In this document: positions 452 to 45,802 of the stretch, piece by piece | Position numbering within the stretch: the stretch's first letter is position 1 | How the letters are laid out: every line of letters begins with the position of its first letter | Origin: a bacterium BMS3Abin15 | GTDB taxonomy: Bacteria; Patescibacteriota; Minisyncoccia; Moranbacterales; 2-12-FULL-40-10 | NCBI GenBank assembly: GCA_002923195.1 | Contig: BDTH01000047.1 | Location: 1 to 49,919 of the forward strand | DNA length: 49,919 bases | Direction: 5' to 3' | The notes under the pieces: model-generated | What the model was told of the DNA's origin: nothing | The model's input: the letters and a program-made list of their open reading frames with translations, nothing else | Databases searched by the model: none | Program-made: the position numbers and the translations under genes

Positions 452-1651
452 ATGTCGGATATAGAGAAGAAAATTGATGAGATTTTGACGAGGGGAGTGG
501 CAGAAGTGATTGATAAGGAGAATATTAAAAAACGACTTTTAGGTGGTGAAAGGTTGAGGGTTAAGTATGGGGCTGATCCGACGCGCCCCGACCTTCATCT
601 AGGCCATTCTGTGGGAATGAGAAAGCTTAAAGTTTTGCAAGAGCTGGGGCATCATATAATTTTTATAATAGGCGACTATACTTCGCTTATCGGGGATCCT
701 TCTGAAAAATCAAAAGCCCGTCCGATGATGACAGAAGAAGAAATTGAAGTTAATGCGAAGACATATTTCGATCAGGTCGGAAAAATTCTTGACGTAAATA
801 AAGTCGAGATTAAAAAAAATAGCGAGTGGTTTTCAAAAATGACTATGGCGGACGTGATAAAGCTGGAATCCAAATTTACTATCGCAAGGACACTGGAAAG
901 GGACGATTTTGACAAAAGATTAAAAGCAGGAACTGACATAGGAAATCATGAAATTTTATACCCCATGATGCAGGCTTATGACTCGTTTATTTTAAATATC
1001 GATTTGGAAGTTGAGGGCAATGACCAAAAATTTAACTGTCATGCGGGAAGGGAGTTACAAGGGAAAATGGGCAAACCCAAGCAGGATATTTTATTAGTTC
1101 CGCTTTTGATTGGCTTGGATGGAAAAGAAAAAATGAGTAAAAGTCTGGATAACTACATCGGCATTACCGAAGAGCCAAATTCAATGTTTGGGAAAGTGAT
1201 GTCTATTCCGGACACTTCAATTGCTAATTATTTCGAACTTTGCACAGATGTTCCGATGGATGAAATTAAAGAAATGGAAATGGACATAAAAACTGAAAAA
1301 AAGAATCCTCGCGATTTGAAAATTAAATTGGCGGAAGAAATTGTAAAAATTTATCACAGGAAAAAAGAAGCTCAAAAAGCCAAAGACTATTTCGTTGACA
1401 CATTTTCCAAAAAAGAAACTCCCGAAAATATTCCGGAAGTTAAGGTTAGCAAGGACAACATTAAATTAACTGAATTTTTAGTTTTTTCGGGGAACGCGGA
1501 CAGCTTAAGCGACGCGAGGAGGAAGATTGAACAGGGAGGAGTGGAAATAAATAATAAAAAAGAAACAGATTGGCAAAGGGTTTTAAATAAAAAGGATAAC
1601 GGCAGTACCTTAAAAATAGGCAAATACGGTTTTGTTAAAATAAAGTTTTGA
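452..1651 (+). CDS. tyrS: Tyrosine--tRNA ligase
   Basis: GADPTRPDLHLGH (HIGH-like), KMSKS, C-terminal S4-like domain. Confidence 0.97.
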   Translation: MSDIEKKIDEILTRGVAEVIDKENIKKRLLGGERLRVKYGADPTRPDLHLGHSVGMRKLKVLQELGHHIIFIIGDYTSLIGDPSEKSKARPMMTEEEIEVNAKTYFDQVGKILDVNKVEIKKNSEWFSKMTMADVIKLESKFTIARTLERDDFDKRLKAGTDIGNHEILYPMMQAYDSFILNIDLEVEGNDQKFNCHAGRELQGKMGKPKQDILLVPLLIGLDGKEKMSKSLDNYIGITEEPNSMFGKVMSIPDTSIANYFELCTDVPMDEIKEMEMDIKTEKKNPRDLKIKLAEEIVKIYHRKKEAQKAKDYFVDTFSKKETPENIPEVKVSKDNIKLTEFLVFSGNADSLSDARRKIEQGGVEINNKKETDWQRVLNKKDNGSTLKIGKYGFVKIKF

Positions 1652-5078: not shown

Positions 5079-7019
5079 TTAATTGTCGACTTTCTTAAAC
5101 ACTTTTACGAAATTTCCCGGCCGATCGCCTATCTCAAGTTTCCATTCCGGCTCGGTTATTCCATCATAATATTTGTAAGCATCGATGAATCTTTCGCTGG
5201 TTCTATAACTTTTGTATTGGTAATAATATCTTATTTCTCCCCGGCGGGTCAGCACATAATAGTCGACGGGATATTGGTCCAGTTCAAAGCGGTATTTAGT
5301 GATGCATTTTCCCTTAAAAAATTCGCAGAATCCGTGGTAGTCCGTCCAGACCGTAAGATTTTCCGCATCGGGGAGTGAATTCAGATATTGCGCCGCCTCA
5401 TAGCCTCCGTAACCCCAGGCGCCAGTAATGAGATATTTTTTAGGAAGCAGGCTGTTGGTGTAATTAAAATAAAAAGGACTACACAACCAAAGACTAACTG
5501 TGCTTATAAGCATAACAACCGGAATCACTACTCGCCATCTTATCTTTTTGCGTAGCTTCGGCATTGATAAAAAGTCATAAATGCCAATGGCCGCCAGGAT
5601 CATAACTAAAGGATAAAGCATAATACTATATCTTACTGTAGCCAATAGGCCACTTTTTATCATAGCTGCTTGAAAGATGACTATAAACAAAGACAATGAA
5701 AAAATAACGAGTTCGTGCTTTGTCGGCTTAAAAACCGACTTAATCCAGATGTATAAAATTGAAATTAAAACAAGCGGTGTCAGAGAAAATATGAGTGGCT
5801 TATGTTCTAAGATTAACTTTTGATAAACAGGAAGAATATTAAAACTGGTAGCATCGCGTTTATCGAATTCAATATGTTCAAGATTGACTATGCTATTTCC
5901 ACTTATCCAGTTAGCCAAAACGAATAGGGTTAATATGATAAGAAGAGTATAAATAATACGAGGTAGAATATTTTTTAGAAATTTTAGCTTTTTTAACAAG
6001 AAGCTAATTATTTGACTGTTAAAATATAAGCTGTCCACTATTAAAAGAATGTTCAGGACAACTACTATCCAAAAAATATATCCCAATCCCTCATAACCTA
6101 TGGTGCCTTTCCAAAGGTGCTTGGATTTTATAAAAACGGCCGGCATCAAAAAGGAAAATACTGCCAGGGATCCGGCCACAATCGCAAAATATGCAACGGA
6201 AAGTTCCAGAATTTTCTTCTTTGATTTTTCAGTGTTCCCAATTTGATCGGACAGGGTGAGTAAAAAATAAAAAAGAATTACTAAAAACAAAAACGGGAAA
6301 AGTATTGCGGCAACATATTTTGTAAGAAGTGCCAGCCCCAAAAAAATAGAGGAAAGAATGGCAAACTTCCTTTTACCCCCACACCAATGTTGCTTATTCT
6401 TGTCGTGTAATTGTTCAGATATATTAATGTCGTTATTTTTTTCGTATTGGTGTGGGGGTGTACTTGTTTTAATGAAAGCTAGGAAAGCGAAAATTGACGC
6501 GGTAGAAAATCCCCACAAAAGAGAATCCGGGTTCACTATCTGCGATATCCCTAAAAGGATAGGGGATAAAAGCATTAAAACAGAGGACAGAAGGGCTATC
6601 CAGTCGTTTTCAGTCACTTTTTTGATTAGCCAAAATAGTACGAGAACGAAAAATCCATTAAAAATCAAAATAGGCAGGCGGAAAGTTAGGTTTAACTTCT
6701 CAGTTCGTTCTGAGTGATAAGCGCTTAATGTCGTATCATCTTTGATCATATGGTCGCGCGGCGTCTTGTCCCAGAGGAGTCCGATTCCGGAAACGTAAGC
6801 CAGTGTTATTCCTGGCTTATCATTTATTCTTGTTTTTTTCCATTTTCGATTAGATATTGCTTCCCAATATTGGGGAACCCTGTCATAGACCCAATAATGT
6901 TCATCAGAGGTTATAAATTTTGTCAGATGGTTAAATCCAAAAATAAAATAAATAATAACAGATACGGCCAGTAAAAATTTAATATAAAAATTATTTTTCC
7001 CTTTTTTTGTTTTTTCCAT
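5079..7019 (-). CDS. GT-C (PMT/ArnT-like) membrane glycosyltransferase with in-frame palindromic insertion
   Basis: Luminal DE motif (TSDEHYW), NPDSLLW, LALLTKY, many TM segments; paralog of the next gene. Confidence 0.8.
   Translation of the reverse strand: MEKTKKGKNNFYIKFLLAVSVIIYFIFGFNHLTKFITSDEHYWVYDRVPQYWEAISNRKWKKTRINDKPGITLAYVSGIGLLWDKTPRDHMIKDDTTLSAYHSERTEKLNLTFRLPILIFNGFFVLVLFWLIKKVTENDWIALLSSVLMLLSPILLGISQIVNPDSLLWGFSTASIFAFLAFIKTSTPPHQYEKNNDINISEQLHDKNKQHWCGGKRKFAILSSIFLGLALLTKYVAAILFPFLFLVILFYFLLTLSDQIGNTEKSKKKILELSVAYFAIVAGSLAVFSFLMPAVFIKSKHLWKGTIGYEGLGYIFWIVVVLNILLIVDSLYFNSQIISFLLKKLKFLKNILPRIIYTLLIILTLFVLANWISGNSIVNLEHIEFDKRDATSFNILPVYQKLILEHKPLIFSLTPLVLISILYIWIKSVFKPTKHELVIFSLSLFIVIFQAAMIKSGLLATVRYSIMLYPLVMILAAIGIYDFLSMPKLRKKIRWRVVIPVVMLISTVSLWLCSPFYFNYTNSLLPKKYLITGAWGYGGYEAAQYLNSLPDAENLTVWTDYHGFCEFFKGKCITKYRFELDQYPVDYYVLTRRGEIRYYYQYKSYRTSERFIDAYKYYDGITEPEWKLEIGDRPGNFVKVFKKVDN
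6376..6458. mobile_element. In-frame MITE-like element (CCCCCACACCAA termini) inside GT-C gene
   Basis: ACCCCCACACCAAT (6375-6388) and ATTGGTGTGGGGGT (6446-6459); flanks TTTA/TGTA; encodes PPHQ...HWCGG, absent from the adjacent paralog. Confidence 0.8.
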
Positions 7020-8916
7020 TTTTTACTTTATTGGGTTTATTGCTGTAGGAAACGTCAATCTTATCTGACTTAATTACTTTGACAAAGTTACTTTCTCTTC
7101 CTCCCAAATTTATCTGGAGGTCCGGATTTTCAAATGTATAAAGTTTATCAAATCGAATTAGATAATCAGGCTTCATTGCCATTTTAGATAAGACTTGGCG
7201 GGTATTCTGGGCGCGTTTCCCGGTTGTCGCGATGAAATAGTCGAAATTATTTTCTCCGCTGGTGATGTAGCGCTTGTAATCCAGAGTACTGGTACAGTGG
7301 CCTCTAAAGAAATAACACACTCCTCGCTTGTCAGTCCAGACGTAAAGGTTTTCGGCGCCCTCCAGGATATTAAGGTATTCCGCCGCTTCATAATTTCCAT
7401 CGCCCATGTCTTTCAGATTTAGAACGTATTGTGGAGGCAATAGATTACTGGCATAACTGAAATAAAAAGGCTTAATTTTATAGAGAGTGGTTATAAGCGT
7501 TAAAGATATTAAAATTAATAAAGTATAAATAATCAGGTTGTCTTTTTTATATTTTTTTATTAAAAAAGAAATTACAAAAGAAATTCCAGTAGCGGCAATA
7601 ATAAAATAAAGTGGGAAGAGGGCAATTTGATAGCGCACGGTTGTAGCCACGTCATTTACGGTTGATCCCAAATAGTAAAGCATGATAAAAATTATAAAAC
7701 AAAAAACAACCTGGTTACTTATTTTAGAAAAAGCATCTTTTTTAAAAATGTAGAAAGCGGCTATTAAGATAGCAATAACAACAACTATTGAGATGCCGAA
7801 TGTTGAAGAGTAAAAACCAGAAAGAAATACGGCCAAGAAACCATTTGAATTGTAGGCCGACTTAGGAGATGCAACTATGGACTCGAAATTAAACCAAGGC
7901 ATTTTGGCGTACACATTAACAATAGTGATTACAATGCTAGCGATAAATAACGAGGCAATCGCAATGCCGATAATTCTCCTGGCTTTCACCAACAGCGACA
8001 ATAGTCTTTCAAATATTTTACTTTTTAAGATAAGTAAATCGGCAACTAGCAGGACTATTAGACCCACGAAATATTGCCAGGTGCTTTCAAAGGCCTCACT
8101 CAATAAAGTTGCATCCAGCAATTTTTCCGGCTTAACCCAGACAGCTGGAAATAAAATAGTGAAAGTTACCAAGGCAATGATTACTATTTTTCCCAAATCC
8201 AATAAAGATCTTTTGACATATTGAGAAGCATCGCCTATTTTTTTGTTGTTTAAAAAGTAATCAAGAAATATCAAGCCAAGAAAAAATATAATCAAAATAT
8301 TAGAAACATATTTTGTAAGAAGTGATAGTCCTAGTAATATTCCAGTAGAATAAATGTAGCGTTTATCCTTACTTTTTATATAATTAAAATAACTTAAAAT
8401 TGTGAGTGGCATAAATATCCATAGCAGTGAGTCGGGATTGATGATGCGGGAAATTCCCAAAAGAATAGGGGAGAGCCCGATGAACAGAACAGAAAACATA
8501 GCCGTGAGGTTGCCAAGAAGGCGGCTGATAAAAAAATAAAAAACCGGTAGCATTAAGACGGTAAATATAAATAGAGGAAGGCGGAGGGCGAGAAACAGAT
8601 TTTCAATGTTTTTTTGCGGATTATAATGTCTGCTTTTAGTGTCATACTCTTCAGGATTTTCTTTAAGTAGACCGACTCCGGATACCAGAGCTGTGGTTAT
8701 TCCTGGCTTATCGCTGATTCTTGTGCCCTTAGGATCAAGTTCCTTTATATTTTTCCAATATTTTGGAATGCGATCAAGAGTCCATAGGGGCTCATCTACC
8801 GGGGCCTGTCTAGAGAGATTATATATTCCGAAACCGAAGTTTATAATCATTACCAAAACAACTACCGCTAGTGGTAGTATTTTTTTAAACTCAAAATTGT
8901 TTTTTATAGAACTCAT
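6991..8916 (-). CDS. GT-C (PMT/ArnT-like) membrane glycosyltransferase (start moved to MSSIK)
   Basis: PVDEPLW, RISDKPGIT, INPDSLLW, LSLLTKY; the ORF-track extension to 9006 reads through a palindromic repeat. Confidence 0.8.
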   Translation of the reverse strand: MSSIKNNFEFKKILPLAVVVLVMIINFGFGIYNLSRQAPVDEPLWTLDRIPKYWKNIKELDPKGTRISDKPGITTALVSGVGLLKENPEEYDTKSRHYNPQKNIENLFLALRLPLFIFTVLMLPVFYFFISRLLGNLTAMFSVLFIGLSPILLGISRIINPDSLLWIFMPLTILSYFNYIKSKDKRYIYSTGILLGLSLLTKYVSNILIIFFLGLIFLDYFLNNKKIGDASQYVKRSLLDLGKIVIIALVTFTILFPAVWVKPEKLLDATLLSEAFESTWQYFVGLIVLLVADLLILKSKIFERLLSLLVKARRIIGIAIASLFIASIVITIVNVYAKMPWFNFESIVASPKSAYNSNGFLAVFLSGFYSSTFGISIVVVIAILIAAFYIFKKDAFSKISNQVVFCFIIFIMLYYLGSTVNDVATTVRYQIALFPLYFIIAATGISFVISFLIKKYKKDNLIIYTLLILISLTLITTLYKIKPFYFSYASNLLPPQYVLNLKDMGDGNYEAAEYLNILEGAENLYVWTDKRGVCYFFRGHCTSTLDYKRYITSGENNFDYFIATTGKRAQNTRQVLSKMAMKPDYLIRFDKLYTFENPDLQINLGGRESNFVKVIKSDKIDVSYSNKPNKVKNGKNKKREK

Positions 8917-8966
8917 CGTATTGCTACGGTTTTTTAAGTTATAAAAAATGATTAATAAATTATGCG

Positions 8967-9015
8967 ACCCCCACTCTTTCTCCCCCTTACTAAGAAGGAG
9001 AAGCAAATAGGGGGT
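8967..9015. repeat. CCCCC/GGGGG-bounded imperfect palindrome with internal CTCCCCCTT-ACT-AAGAAGGAG hairpin
   Basis: Related to the repeat at 21063-21158; lies between divergent genes. Confidence 0.55.
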
Positions 9016-24152: not shown

Positions 24153-25598
24153 CTACCGCCCTATCCCTCTGTATATTATACCATACTTTTGAATAGCATC
24201 TTTGTCCAGGCAATTTTTTCCGTCGACAATAGCTTTAATGGAATATTTTTTAAATATGCTTGGATCAAGTTTCTTAAATTCATCGTGGTCAGTGACAAGA
24301 ATAACCGCTTTGGATTTCCTTAATAGTTCCTCTATGTTTTTCACATCTGACATATGCGGAACGTGAGGATCAAACATTATTACATCCGCATCGTGTTTTT
24401 GTAAATGCTCCAATATTTTGAAAACTGGAGATTCTCTAAGGTCTGCAACGTTAGCCTTATATGATATGCCCAGAATCCCTATGGGAGTTCCCTTCATTGG
24501 CATTTTAATACTATTTAAAGAATGTTGAAGAATATTAACTGTGTATTCTGGCATTGAGTTATTTATTTTTCTGGCAATTTTTAAAAACTCGTGGTCAAAT
24601 CCGCTAGCCTTAGCTCTTTCTATAAGATAATAAGGATCAACCGGGATACAATGACCACCAACGCCGCAACCGGGAAAATGAGGCATAAAAGCGAATGGCT
24701 TAGTAGACGCGCCTCTTATTACGTCGTCAATGTCTATATTCATTCGGTCAAACGATTTTGCTAACTCATTGACGAAAGCAATATTAACATCCCTGAATGA
24801 ATTCTCTACGATTTTAACAGCCTCAGCTTCACGAATTGATTTCATCGGATAGATTTCGGCATCAAGAATTTTTTTATAAAACTTCACAGCCAAAGATAAT
24901 CCCTTTTTACTGAAGGCGCCGACTACGCGGGGAATATTAACCACATTCCAATTAGCATCTCCTGGGTTTATTCTTTCTGGGCAGTGAGCTAGGTAATAGT
25001 CTTTTCCTACTTTGTATCCGGCCTTGGCGAATATTGGCTCAACAACCTCTTCGCATACTCCGGGATTAACAGTAGATTCTATTACTACCAGTTGTCCTTT
25101 TTTAAAATTCTTTACAATTGAAGTTACGGCTTTCTTGACCGGACTTAAATCGGGATAATATTTTTCATCTACGGGAGTAGGAACGCAAACCAAAACTATA
25201 TCTGATTTTTTAATAACCTTGGCATCGGCAGTAGCTTCTATTTTTACCCCGACACCAATTTTAGCAGAATCTTTCGAAGATATATTGGTAGAGCTGATAG
25301 ATGACTTCGTCTTGCGGTTATTATTTTTTTCAGAGCCTGTCTTGGGATTGGTGTTGGGGTTTACTTTAGGCAAGTTGTTCTCTAAAAAATCCTCCTTTAT
25401 AGGGCTTTTTCCGGAATTAATTTTCTTAATCTTTTTTCGATCATTTTCCAATCCAAAAACCCTAAACCCACTTAAGGCAGATTGTACAGCCAATGGAAGA
25501 CCAACATAACCCATTCCGATTACGCAAACCGTTTGTTTTAACCTGTTTTTCCCTTTATTTTTCATAGTTATATTGAATTTATCAACATTTTTCATCAT
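24153..25598 (-). CDS. Nucleotide-sugar (UDP-GlcNAc/ManNAc-type) dehydrogenase with in-frame palindromic insertion
   Basis: IGMGYVGLP, CVPTP, IESTVNPG, CPERINPG, ENSFRDVNIAF, GVGGHCIPVDP, DLRESP. Confidence 0.93.
   Translation of the reverse strand: MMKNVDKFNITMKNKGKNRLKQTVCVIGMGYVGLPLAVQSALSGFRVFGLENDRKKIKKINSGKSPIKEDFLENNLPKVNPNTNPKTGSEKNNNRKTKSSISSTNISSKDSAKIGVGVKIEATADAKVIKKSDIVLVCVPTPVDEKYYPDLSPVKKAVTSIVKNFKKGQLVVIESTVNPGVCEEVVEPIFAKAGYKVGKDYYLAHCPERINPGDANWNVVNIPRVVGAFSKKGLSLAVKFYKKILDAEIYPMKSIREAEAVKIVENSFRDVNIAFVNELAKSFDRMNIDIDDVIRGASTKPFAFMPHFPGCGVGGHCIPVDPYYLIERAKASGFDHEFLKIARKINNSMPEYTVNILQHSLNSIKMPMKGTPIGILGISYKANVADLRESPVFKILEHLQKHDADVIMFDPHVPHMSDVKNIEELLRKSKAVILVTDHDEFKKLDPSIFKKYSIKAIVDGKNCLDKDAIQKYGIIYRGIGR
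25247..25359. mobile_element. In-frame MITE-like element inside the dehydrogenase gene
   Basis: ACCCCGACACCAAT (25246-59) and ATTGGTGTTGGGGT (25347-60); exact TTTA/TTTA flanks; encodes PNTNPK...KIGVGV. Confidence 0.85.
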
Positions 25599-41167: not shown

Positions 41168-41317
41168 CCCCGTAGTGAAAATTCAAAAGATTATATAAAC
41201 TTGCATAGCTTATAGCATAAAATTACGCGGGCAGATAAATTAACACAGGATAACAAAAACTAAACAACTTATCAGAAATCATTTCGGGCTATGCCCATTT
41301 GAATTTCTACTACGGGG
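41168..41317. mobile_element. MITE-like element (CCCCGTAGT subfamily) abutting the NUDIX start codon
   Basis: CCCCGTAGTGAAAATTCAAA ... TTTGAATTTCTACTACGGGG; same termini as 45735-45802. Confidence 0.8.
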
Positions 41318-45734: not shown

Positions 45735-45802
45735 CCCCATAGTGAAAATTTGAATAATTTTATTATCTTTGGGCAGGGCCCGTTCAAATTTCTACTACGG
45801 GG
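45735..45802. mobile_element. MITE-like element (CCCCGTAGT subfamily) in the -35 box of the Rrf2 operon promoter
   Basis: CCCCATAGTGAAAATTTGAA ... TTCAAATTTCTACTACGGGG; exact TTGA/TTGA flanks. Confidence 0.85.

Follow-up and report, generated by a model that had tools for sequence, protein, structure and literature searches.

An 83-bp sequence at positions 6376–6458 of the window (the whole 49,919-nucleotide stretch of DNA analysed here) lies in frame within a gene for a GT-C glycosyltransferase of an ultra-small bacterium (Patescibacteria). Our analysis indicates that it is very probably a gene-less, MITE-like copy of a mobile hairpin element, and that units carrying a small GIY-YIG nuclease gene are probably the coding members of the same family.

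The Element and Its Host Gene

Measured from its first C to its last G, the element is 83 bp long (3n+2) and ends in a perfect 14-bp inverted repeat, ACCCCCACACCAAT on one side and ATTGGTGTGGGGGT on the other. The left repeat occupies positions 6375–6388 on the forward strand, and the right repeat (6446–6459) reads ACCCCCACACCAAT on the reverse strand; neither contains a mismatch. Beyond them are the 4-bp flanks TTTA (6372–6375), of the T-W-W-A class, and TGTA (6459–6462), which has one mismatch relative to TTTA; the two may be copies of a target-site duplication, albeit not an exact one. The interval proposed in an earlier note on this DNA, 6372–6462, corresponds to the core from C to G plus 4 bp per side. 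As judged by sequence comparison, the insertion took place at a T-N-N-A site within the GT-C gene. The element is gene-less, with no open reading frame of its own, and its 57-nt interior is unlike that of any other copy. When folded as a single strand it forms a 14-bp stem closing a 57-nt open loop (–23.6 kcal/mol as RNA, z = –4.8). A search of the region against Rfam gave no match at E ≤ 1, and the interior had no matches in JGI metagenome contigs.

The host gene (5079–7019, reverse strand) is intact and encodes a lipid-carrier-dependent glycosyltransferase of the GT-C (PMT/PMT_2) type, 646 aa in length. The product matches the Pfam PMT/PMT_2 family (PF02366), and its top Foldseek matches are all GT-C enzymes (AglB, STT3, DPY19, Pmt4, and ArnT); the GT-C signature after the first transmembrane helix is also present, with Asp39 invariant and Glu40 near-invariant. 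The element contributes exactly 29 codons (TPPHQ...HWCGG, approximately residues 187–215), corresponding to 87 nt, or 83 plus 4. The reading frame is free of stops across these 87 bp, and the host gene has therefore stayed open. The earlier description of an in-frame element in a GT-C gene is thus borne out, and the extra residues, put there at about 28–29, number exactly 29 and coincide with the boundaries of the inverted repeat.

The AlphaFold model of the host protein is of high overall confidence (mean pLDDT 90, pTM 0.92). The insert is its sole internal stretch of low confidence (pLDDT about 52–54) and is placed between the transmembrane helices H165–186 and H204–233, in agreement with the suggestion that it occupies a loop between helices. 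This loop, between TM4 and TM5, is short, flanked by lysine and arginine, and probably cytoplasmic. The element would be read as a 29-residue extension of the TM4–TM5 loop that includes the insert peptide YEKNNDINISEQLHDK, and the model suggests that the glycosyltransferase tolerates the addition.

Empty Sites

A tandem paralog without the insert (6991–8916, reverse strand) is 33% identical to the host protein. BLASTP alignment of the two gives a single 29-residue gap at the position of the element, with gap boundaries that are those of the inverted repeat; once the 29 residues are removed, the host protein reads FLAFIKTSKRKFAILSSIFLGLALLTKY and aligns gap-free with YFNYIKSKDKRYIYSTGILLGLSLLTKY of the paralog. 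The paralog had been proposed as an internal empty-site control, and the exact 29-aa gap upholds that use, but at 33% identity it is a weak control when taken alone.

The real control is provided by the spacing across the wider set of homologs. Homologs were found in 33 of the 40 related genomes searched; most of them do not contain the 29 residues, and most matches break at query positions 184–187 and 214–223. The distance from the NPD motif to the TKY motif was measured in 121 proteins, made up of the top 120 homologs from the database and one relative (P0001), and is 44 aa in 114 of them, compared with 73 aa in the query and in a 92%-identical ortholog. This distance of 44 aa, invariant in over 100 homologs, carries more weight than the paralog. 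The 92%-identical protein (P0002/L013) is the sole ortholog above 50% identity. It comes from a separately deposited assembly (GCA_011051095.1) in which the same element is found base for base, and no empty allele of the GT-C gene was found at the DNA level. The predicted empty junction, ...AAAACAAGTA(A/C)AAGGAAG..., had no matches in JGI metagenome contigs.

The presence of an identical insert in this second assembly, in which the downstream sequence has diverged, could also mean that the insert has been co-opted, its cytoplasmic loop or mRNA hairpin serving the host (e.g., through a regulatory role, through binding of a partner, or through a pause in translation) and being kept by selection. 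Two distant homologs (L004 and L005) have unrelated inserts of about 22–25 aa in the same loop, a further point in favor; inverted repeats were sought in both inserts, and none was convincing. We consider co-option improbable. From one copy shared with a near-identical strain, little can be concluded about selection; the short loop is kept in 114 other homologs, the insert is without confident structure, and the interiors of the family have no peptide in common.

The window holds four copies of the family, each of them intragenic. A sibling of 113 bp (25247–25359) lies in frame in a UDP-glucose/GDP-mannose dehydrogenase gene (24153–25598) between the flanks TTTA and TTTA; the ortholog from a genome of the same family (G001), 75% identical, lacks exactly the corresponding 39 aa. 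Two more siblings, of 80 bp (28920–28999) and 83 bp (29175–29257), are in frame in one GT4 gene (28594–29904), and the G001 ortholog has exact gaps of 28 and 29 aa at these positions; the flanks of the copy at 29175 (TTTA and TAAA) are compatible with other junction models as well. The empty sites are exact for all three siblings.

A Genome-Wide Family of Inverted Ends

The motif ACCCCCACACCAAT, with up to two mismatches allowed, occurs 8 times in the window, compared with 0.25 expected, and none of 100 shuffled sequences reached 8. Across the 1.22-Mb genome we identified 42 copies, defined as pairs of inverted ends, with lengths of 44–297 bp. The conserved part of the family consists of the 12–16-bp inverted ends only (CCCCCACACCAA...TTGGTGTGGGGG). 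Among 201 genomes of the order, 10, representing five families, contain the exact ends, and a reversed control pattern was found in none. An alternative in which nothing has moved supposes that the loop lengthened within this lineage and that the inverted repeat is a chance match or a palindrome generated locally; it can draw on the variation in loop length seen in a few homologs. It is effectively refuted, and we give it almost no weight, in view of the excess of the motif in the window, the 42 pairs across the genome, the same ends in other families of the order, and the exact empty sites of the three siblings.

The interiors of the copies are unrelated. Similarity was detected in 3 of 861 pairs, one of which consists of the two nuclease units described below; comparison of the interiors with the nuclease gene, in search of remnants, gave no significant matches beyond words of 11–15 nt. 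Perfect ends around unrelated interiors are odd for MITEs, and simple copying followed by decay does not explain them. The consensus of the flanks is T-W-W-A. Exact 4-bp direct repeats flank 10 of the 42 copies (2.3 expected), and inverted 4-bp flanks are found at the expected level (3 copies versus 3.0).

Measured from C to G, each of the 14 intragenic copies has a length of 3n+2, which becomes 3n with the additional 4 bp, and all 14 are stop-free. Lengths of the 28 other copies are spread over the three classes without bias (11, 9, and 8), and just 17% of the frames through non-genic copies are free of stops. This pattern probably arises because insertions into genes survive only when the frame is kept and no stop is introduced. 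The rule that holds for the 14 intragenic copies, set against the 28 unbiased ones, therefore suggests that the copies are translated and not spliced out. It bears directly on the alternative that the element is removed before translation, through mRNA cleavage at the 14-bp stem, followed by religation, or through excision from the DNA, leaving a protein without the 29 residues. The stem is strong and brings both flanks together, but removal would impose no constraint on frame, and the constraint seen in all 14 intragenic copies, with only 17% of the others open, argues against it. The lack of any Rfam family matching the region and the length of 83 bp, far below the size of a self-splicing intron, point the same way, and we regard removal as very unlikely.

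GIY-YIG Nuclease Units

Two copies of the family contain a gene. At C24:16011–16305 and C35:60474–60770 (295 and 297 bp), the same ends enclose a gene for an 84-aa GIY-YIG nuclease, with an ATG that abuts the repeat; the protein matches PF01541 over residues 1–71 of 84 (E = 3e-18). The nearest PDB chains are the UPF0213 proteins EF2693 and BH0048 (E of about 1e-5), and NCBIfam gave weak, sub-threshold matches only. At least four more GIY-YIG genes in the genome lie between CCC...GGG ends of their own (spans of 280–310 bp), and eight intact units with the same junction of end and ATG were found in metagenome-assembled genomes of Moranbacteria, Woesebacteria, Falkowbacteria, and Parcubacteria. 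In 10 units the GIY and YIG tyrosines, Arg26, His30-Asn31, and Glu50 are invariant, and Asn64 is replaced by Arg in three; we take these conserved positions to be the GIY-YIG catalytic residues. A 121-bp derivative (L019), the single deletion derivative that we identified, retains codons 1–19 of the nuclease gene. No element with these ends exceeds 400 bp, and no gene other than GIY-YIG is enclosed by them. These observations suggest that the 295- and 297-bp units are the coding members of the family. Neither the GIY-YIG connection nor the 42-copy family had been seen in the earlier note, and searches of the literature on Patescibacteria turned up no account of GIY-YIG units with inverted repeats at their ends or of hairpin elements lying in frame.

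The link between the element family and the nuclease is nevertheless loose. Small GIY-YIG genes are present in 17 of 18 related genomes, with or without these ends, so that their co-occurrence is uninformative; nuclease identity does not exceed 56% in any relative that bears the ends, and one genome (G180) has five exact-end copies yet only one nuclease match, at 37% identity. An alternative is that the element is mobile but is moved by another enzyme, either a Y1 (RAYT/IS200-like) transposase acting in trans on the hairpins or the single DDE transposase of the genome. In that case the GIY-YIG gene would ride along as a passenger or else encode a selfish nuclease, one that has colonized hairpins of this kind itself. 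The genome has six matches to PF01797 (Y1_Tnp) and one to PF01609, and REPINs are likewise hairpin pairs mobilized by an enzyme encoded in a single copy. GIY-YIG enzymes are hydrolytic nucleases, and we know of no transposase with this fold; this, together with the lack of a strict association, is to the advantage of another mover. The distribution of the motif is not: CCCCCACACCAA is found within 1 kb of none of the six Y1 genes, at least two of which are flanked by different hairpins of their own, and it is absent from the contig that carries the DDE gene, while GIY-YIG genes are the sole genes enclosed by these ends, here and in eight other genomes. We regard another mover as a real but secondary possibility. 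The reading that we prefer, by analogy with the Ssn nucleases, is that the enclosed nuclease may itself move the element.

Proposed Mechanism and Significance

If the nuclease is the mover, the two ends would pair as a stem on single-stranded DNA, and the small nuclease would recognize the CCCCCACACCAAT stem and, in the manner of Ssn nucleases acting on their own hairpins, cleave it at the base. Excision or insertion would then be finished by the repair or ligation machinery of the host. Whatever sits between two ends would travel along, and the interiors would therefore be free to shrink by deletion and to drift.

We put forward more tentatively, and as a doubtful proposition at present, that the 295-bp units, composed of 14–21-bp inverted ends and an 84-aa GIY-YIG gene, are autonomous transposons whose nuclease fold falls outside the recognized transposase classes. 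They would then rank as the smallest known autonomous mobile elements and would move as folded single strands recognized by the stem alone; as any loop content would travel with them, their gene-less derivatives could generate novel peptide loops in patescibacterial proteins. Recognition of the stem alone, if true, would explain why perfect ends surround unrelated interiors.

The colonization of genes, in frame, by selfish palindromes has been a curiosity of Rickettsia for 25 years. The same behavior is now seen in another phylum with tiny genomes, where the frame signature (14 of 14 intragenic copies, against a random spread in the others) supports translation of the inserts and where a candidate parent can be delimited physically as a unit some 295 bp long with a small GIY-YIG nuclease as its sole gene. 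Three threads are thereby tied together: protein remodeling of the kind attributed to Rickettsia palindromic elements (RPEs), the pairs of Ssn hairpins and nucleases reported in 2025, and the puzzling number of tiny GIY-YIG genes that Patescibacteria carry. Should the nuclease prove to be the mobilizing enzyme, these units would constitute a new and extremely small class of transposon. Inserts of this type also swell and break protein alignments in these genomes, and masking them during annotation is advisable.

Comparison with Known Systems

Like bacterial MITEs (e.g., Correia/NEMIS of Neisseria), the elements are short and gene-less, have terminal inverted repeats, and occur in many copies, with short putative target duplications at AT-rich sites and longer relatives that share the ends and carry a gene. 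The copies are dispersed and vary in presence between genomes, as seen for the three siblings relative to G001 and for the 114 homologs without the GT-C insert. Two features are unlike MITEs: the interior is not common to the copies (3 of 861 pairs), and the partners that have the same ends carry just a gene for a GIY-YIG nuclease, which is not a known class of transposase, whereas the partner of a MITE encodes a recognized transposase.

The REP/REPIN-RAYT systems likewise combine hairpin repeats with a small enzyme gene flanked by cognate repeats, and a single-strand mechanism is suspected there as well. In this genome, however, the Y1 genes are not beside the repeats and the enzyme fold differs; moreover, REPs are extragenic by definition, whereas copies of the present family are also found within genes.

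The elements described here share three traits with the mobile GC clusters of yeast mitochondrial DNA: a GC-rich palindrome set in an AT-rich genome, the capacity to sit in frame within a protein gene (var1 in yeast), and short flanking AT duplications, putative in the present family. The yeast clusters differ in being organellar, in enclosing no nuclease gene, and in having an unrelated sequence.

The RPEs are palindromic repeats inserted in frame in Rickettsia genes (Ogata et al. 2000, 2002; cited in PMC10969869). As with RPEs, short palindromes lie here in frame in genes of unrelated housekeeping and metabolic function within a small, AT-rich genome, and the fold probably tolerates the extra peptide segments, translation in the present case being deduced from the frame rule. 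RPEs are about 150 bp long with a conserved peptide in each family, whereas only the ends are conserved here and lengths range from 28 to 131 bp. The host phylum is Patescibacteria rather than that of Rickettsia, and whereas no coding partner of RPEs is described in the review (PMC10969869), the 295-bp GIY-YIG units of this genome have the same ends as the elements.

The Ssn proteins are single-domain GIY-YIG nucleases of single-stranded DNA that are associated with NTS/SRM hairpin repeats (Chenal et al. 2025; PMC11893778), in a layout that the authors liken to an insertion sequence. Both systems involve a single-domain GIY-YIG protein of about 84–94 aa without a DNA-binding domain, and in both the gene is bracketed by inverted-repeat sequences that recur at many other sites across the genome. 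The two differ in repeat sequence, however, and in place of separate flanking hairpins of 20–50 nt, the gene described here lies within the loop of a single large hairpin. Only 2% of NTS are intragenic (PMC11893778), whereas 14 of the 42 copies in this genome lie within genes, in frame.

An Insertion Relative to All Homologs

The GT-C gene at 5079–7019 (minus strand, 646 aa) carries an insertion relative to the homologs of its product. The element has an 83-bp C-to-G core (6376–6458), and the open reading frame passes through it without a stop. On the plus strand, positions 6372–6462 read TTTA CCCCCACACCAATG ... TATTGGTGTGGGGG TGTA; the left inverted end is the 14-mer ACCCCCACACCAAT (6375–6388, plus strand) and the right end (6446–6459) is its perfect reverse complement. 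At two or fewer mismatches, the window has eight occurrences of ACCCCCACACCAAT in four inverted pairs (0.25 occurrences expected from shuffling). The single strand is predicted to fold as a 14-bp stem closing an unstructured loop of 57 nt (−23.6 kcal/mol and z = −4.8 as RNA; z = −4.5 as DNA).

Alignment with the tandem paralog 6991–8916 (BLASTP, 33% identity) leaves one 29-residue gap at the element. Once TPPHQYEKNNDINISEQLHDKNKQHWCGG is removed (87 nt, the core and 4 more), the two proteins line up at every residue from FLAFIK/YFNYIK to LLTKY, so the gap coincides with the repeat boundaries. This confirms the observation of the earlier note, which had mapped in-frame extra residues onto a 14-bp inverted-repeat element, and supports its interpretation. 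Homologs match the protein in 33 of 40 related genomes, and most alignments break where the insert sits, at residues 184–187 and 214–223. The distance from an invariant NPD motif to an invariant TKY lysine was measured in 121 proteins (the 120 best matches from a 5.8-billion-protein database and a relative, P0001); 114 of these share an exact 44-residue spacing with the paralog. Among the proteins measured, a spacing of 73 (44 + 29) is found only in the query and P0002, a partial ortholog with 92% identity. The source of P0002 is an assembly deposited separately (GCA_011051095.1, contig DREM01000125.1), and its element DNA is identical to that of the window; this excludes an assembly artefact and makes the insert older than the split of these two strains. 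A search of ortholog DNA and metagenome contigs found no DNA-level empty allele of the gene.

The GT-C assignment made from sequence holds: Pfam matches are PMT for the host protein and PMT plus PMT_2 for the paralog, and the best Foldseek matches of the host protein are all GT-C enzymes (AglB, STT3, DPY19, Pmt4, ArnT, and ALG9/12). In an AlphaFold2 model built from an alignment of 53 sequences (mean pLDDT 90.3, pTM 0.92), residues ~187–215 form the only internal low-confidence stretch (10-residue blocks at 52 and 54). The first helix (3–30) is followed by a long loop with invariant Asp39 and near-invariant Glu40; helices 103–136 and 139–158 precede invariant Asn163 and Asp165, with Pro164 near-invariant; and the insert lies between helices 165–186 and 204–233, the latter followed by invariant Lys234. 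The structure prediction thus agrees with the earlier placement of the insert in a loop between transmembrane helices. The Asp-Glu loop of GT-C enzymes is on the extracellular side; counting helices from it would place NPD and Lys234 outside the cell and the insert loop in the cytoplasm, a location that fits the flanking Lys/Arg residues (IKTS...KRKF). In two distant GT-C homologs (L004 in G035 and L005 in G019), the same TM4-TM5 loop has unrelated inserts of ~22–25 aa, and neither insert shows a detectable inverted repeat; they may mark a permissive site, or they may be insertions that have decayed. In most related genomes, GT-C genes like those at 5079–9006 form tandem arrays of two to four paralogs.

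A Repeat Family Defined by Its Ends

The element is one member of a family of repeats whose defining feature is their ends. In the 1.22-Mb genome (G000; 37% GC, 114 contigs, including the window as C47), the core CCCCCACACCAA forms 42 inverted pairs (two or fewer mismatches), spanning 44–297 bp. The names of the best-matching database proteins indicate Candidatus Moranbacteria (Patescibacteria/CPR). Conservation is confined to the ends, where perfect pairing mostly extends over 13–16 bp; end positions 11–16 vary among copies yet remain complementary (AATT/AATT, AACT/AGTT, AAAG/CTTT, CTAT/ATAG, and others). The interiors are unrelated, with BLAST similarity of any kind in only 3 of 861 pairs. 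Stem-only palindromes also occur (C22:2010–2037, C35:57819, and C59:1737), the first being a 28-nt perfect palindrome, CCCCCACACCTATG/CATAGGTGTGGGGG, that lacks a loop; the family therefore spans bare hairpins to 297-bp coding units.

The four flanking bases on each side have the consensus T-W-W-A. Exact 4-bp direct repeats flank 10 of the 42 copies (2.3 expected from flank composition) and inverted flanks are no commoner than by chance (3 versus 3.0 expected), a pattern best fitted by a 4-bp target duplication with later erosion. Of 201 genomes of the order, 10, including G000, have exact ends with 20–50 nt spacers; these 10 are scattered in five families, and the reversed control pattern gave no match in any of the 201. 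One of the order, G180, has five exact-end copies, two with related interiors (C3:5489 and C3:6971).

For three sibling copies in the window, orthologs in the same-family genome G001 provide exact empty sites: 25247–25359, in a UDP-glucose/GDP-mannose dehydrogenase gene (39-aa gap, 75% ortholog identity), and 28920–28999 and 29175–29257, in a GT4 gene (28- and 29-aa gaps, 58–76% identity). The GT4 ortholog without these two elements (L015, G001:C45) has an 8-aa in-frame insert of its own, peptide SLSLNPSPKGRGRN, whose coding DNA, CCCTCTCCCAAAGGGCGAGGG, is a short imperfect palindrome rich in GC.

Copies within genes are subject to constraints on frame and stops. All 14 copies inside long ORFs have C-to-G lengths of 3n+2, versus 11, 9, and 8 of the remaining 28 in the three length classes, and of the strand/frame combinations that cross non-genic copies, just 17% lack a stop. 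This contrast is the mark of a filter in which genic insertions persist only with the frame kept open, and it implies that genic copies are translated, not removed.

GIY-YIG Genes within the Family's Ends

The family's ends physically enclose GIY-YIG genes. Two units, C24:16011–16305 (295 bp) and C35:60474–60770 (297 bp), each enclose an 84-aa ORF whose ATG directly adjoins the inverted repeat. The product is a GIY-YIG domain (PF01541, E = 3e-18) with UPF0213 proteins EF2693 and BH0048 as its nearest solved structures. Both units directly precede a same-strand host gene, whose start codon takes its A from the final base of the 4-bp flank (GGGGA|TATA|TGG before a GT2-like gene; GGGGG|TGTA|TGG before a translation GTPase gene), and their G-rich end is where a ribosome-binding site would be. 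Besides these, at least four of the 15 PF01541 matches in the genome lie inside their own CCC...GGG inverted ends (spans of 280–310 bp). A second hairpin family, with ends CCCCGTAGTGAAAATTCAAA...TTTGAATTTCTACTACGGGG, has gene-less elements in the window (41168–41317 and 45735–45802); the CCCCGTAGTGAAAATTCAAA ends also enclose a GIY-YIG unit at C16:647–955.

When a collection of species-representative genomes was searched for the end-plus-ATG junction, 11 loci emerged in MAGs of Moranbacteria, Woesebacteria, Falkowbacteria, and Parcubacteria, eight of them intact units of 279–343 bp. The presumed catalytic residues are invariant over ten aligned units, save one Asn (Arg in three). The same ends bound a 121-bp element (L019; JAKQLJ010000051.1, ~457–577, minus strand) that retains only the first 19 nuclease codons and looks like a deletion intermediate between coding and gene-less forms.

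None of the elements with these ends is longer than 400 bp, and they enclose no other gene. In G000 the motif adjoins neither the sole DDE transposase nor any of the six Y1 transposase genes. Hairpins of another kind accompany at least two of the Y1 genes: Y1 (RAYT/IS200-like) genes at C58:3964–4677 and C32:2058–2086 are flanked by REP-like hairpins (ACTTGGAAGCTTAGCTTCCAAGT in three copies, and GGCTTCCGAAGGCTCAACCTTCGGAAGCC), which make up a hairpin system distinct from the present family. Across genomes the nuclease association is loose: small GIY-YIG genes occur in 17 of 18 relatives irrespective of these ends, and the sole GIY-YIG match in G180 is 37% identical to the cognate nuclease, despite the five exact-end copies there.

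Proposed Mechanism and Comparison with Known Systems

Simple copy-and-decay does not account for perfect ends around unrelated interiors. The nuclease is probably the family's mobilising enzyme. The ends would pair on single-stranded DNA, and the small GIY-YIG nuclease would recognise the stem and cut at its base. GIY-YIG enzymes are hydrolases, and we know of no strand-transfer chemistry for them; joining at T-N-N-A sites would be finished by host functions. Loop content would be free to shrink and drift because recognition would be limited to the stem.

Ssn proteins, single-domain GIY-YIG ssDNA nucleases with hairpin repeats, bind their own hairpins and cut single-stranded DNA at a fixed distance (PMC11893778). 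The layout of a nuclease gene plus repeats is the same in the present family, and the Ssn authors remark that theirs resembles an insertion sequence (PMC11893778); Ssn repeats, however, are separate small hairpins that are seldom intragenic. Rickettsia palindromic elements (RPEs), like the present family, are in-frame, translated, tolerated insertions (PMC10969869), but RPE families have a common conserved peptide whereas the interiors here are unrelated; that review describes no coding partner for RPEs. Full-text literature searches found no description in Patescibacteria of GIY-YIG units with inverted-repeat bounds or of in-frame hairpin elements. The present case is an RPE-like in-frame palindromic insertion, here linked to an Ssn-like GIY-YIG mini-element.
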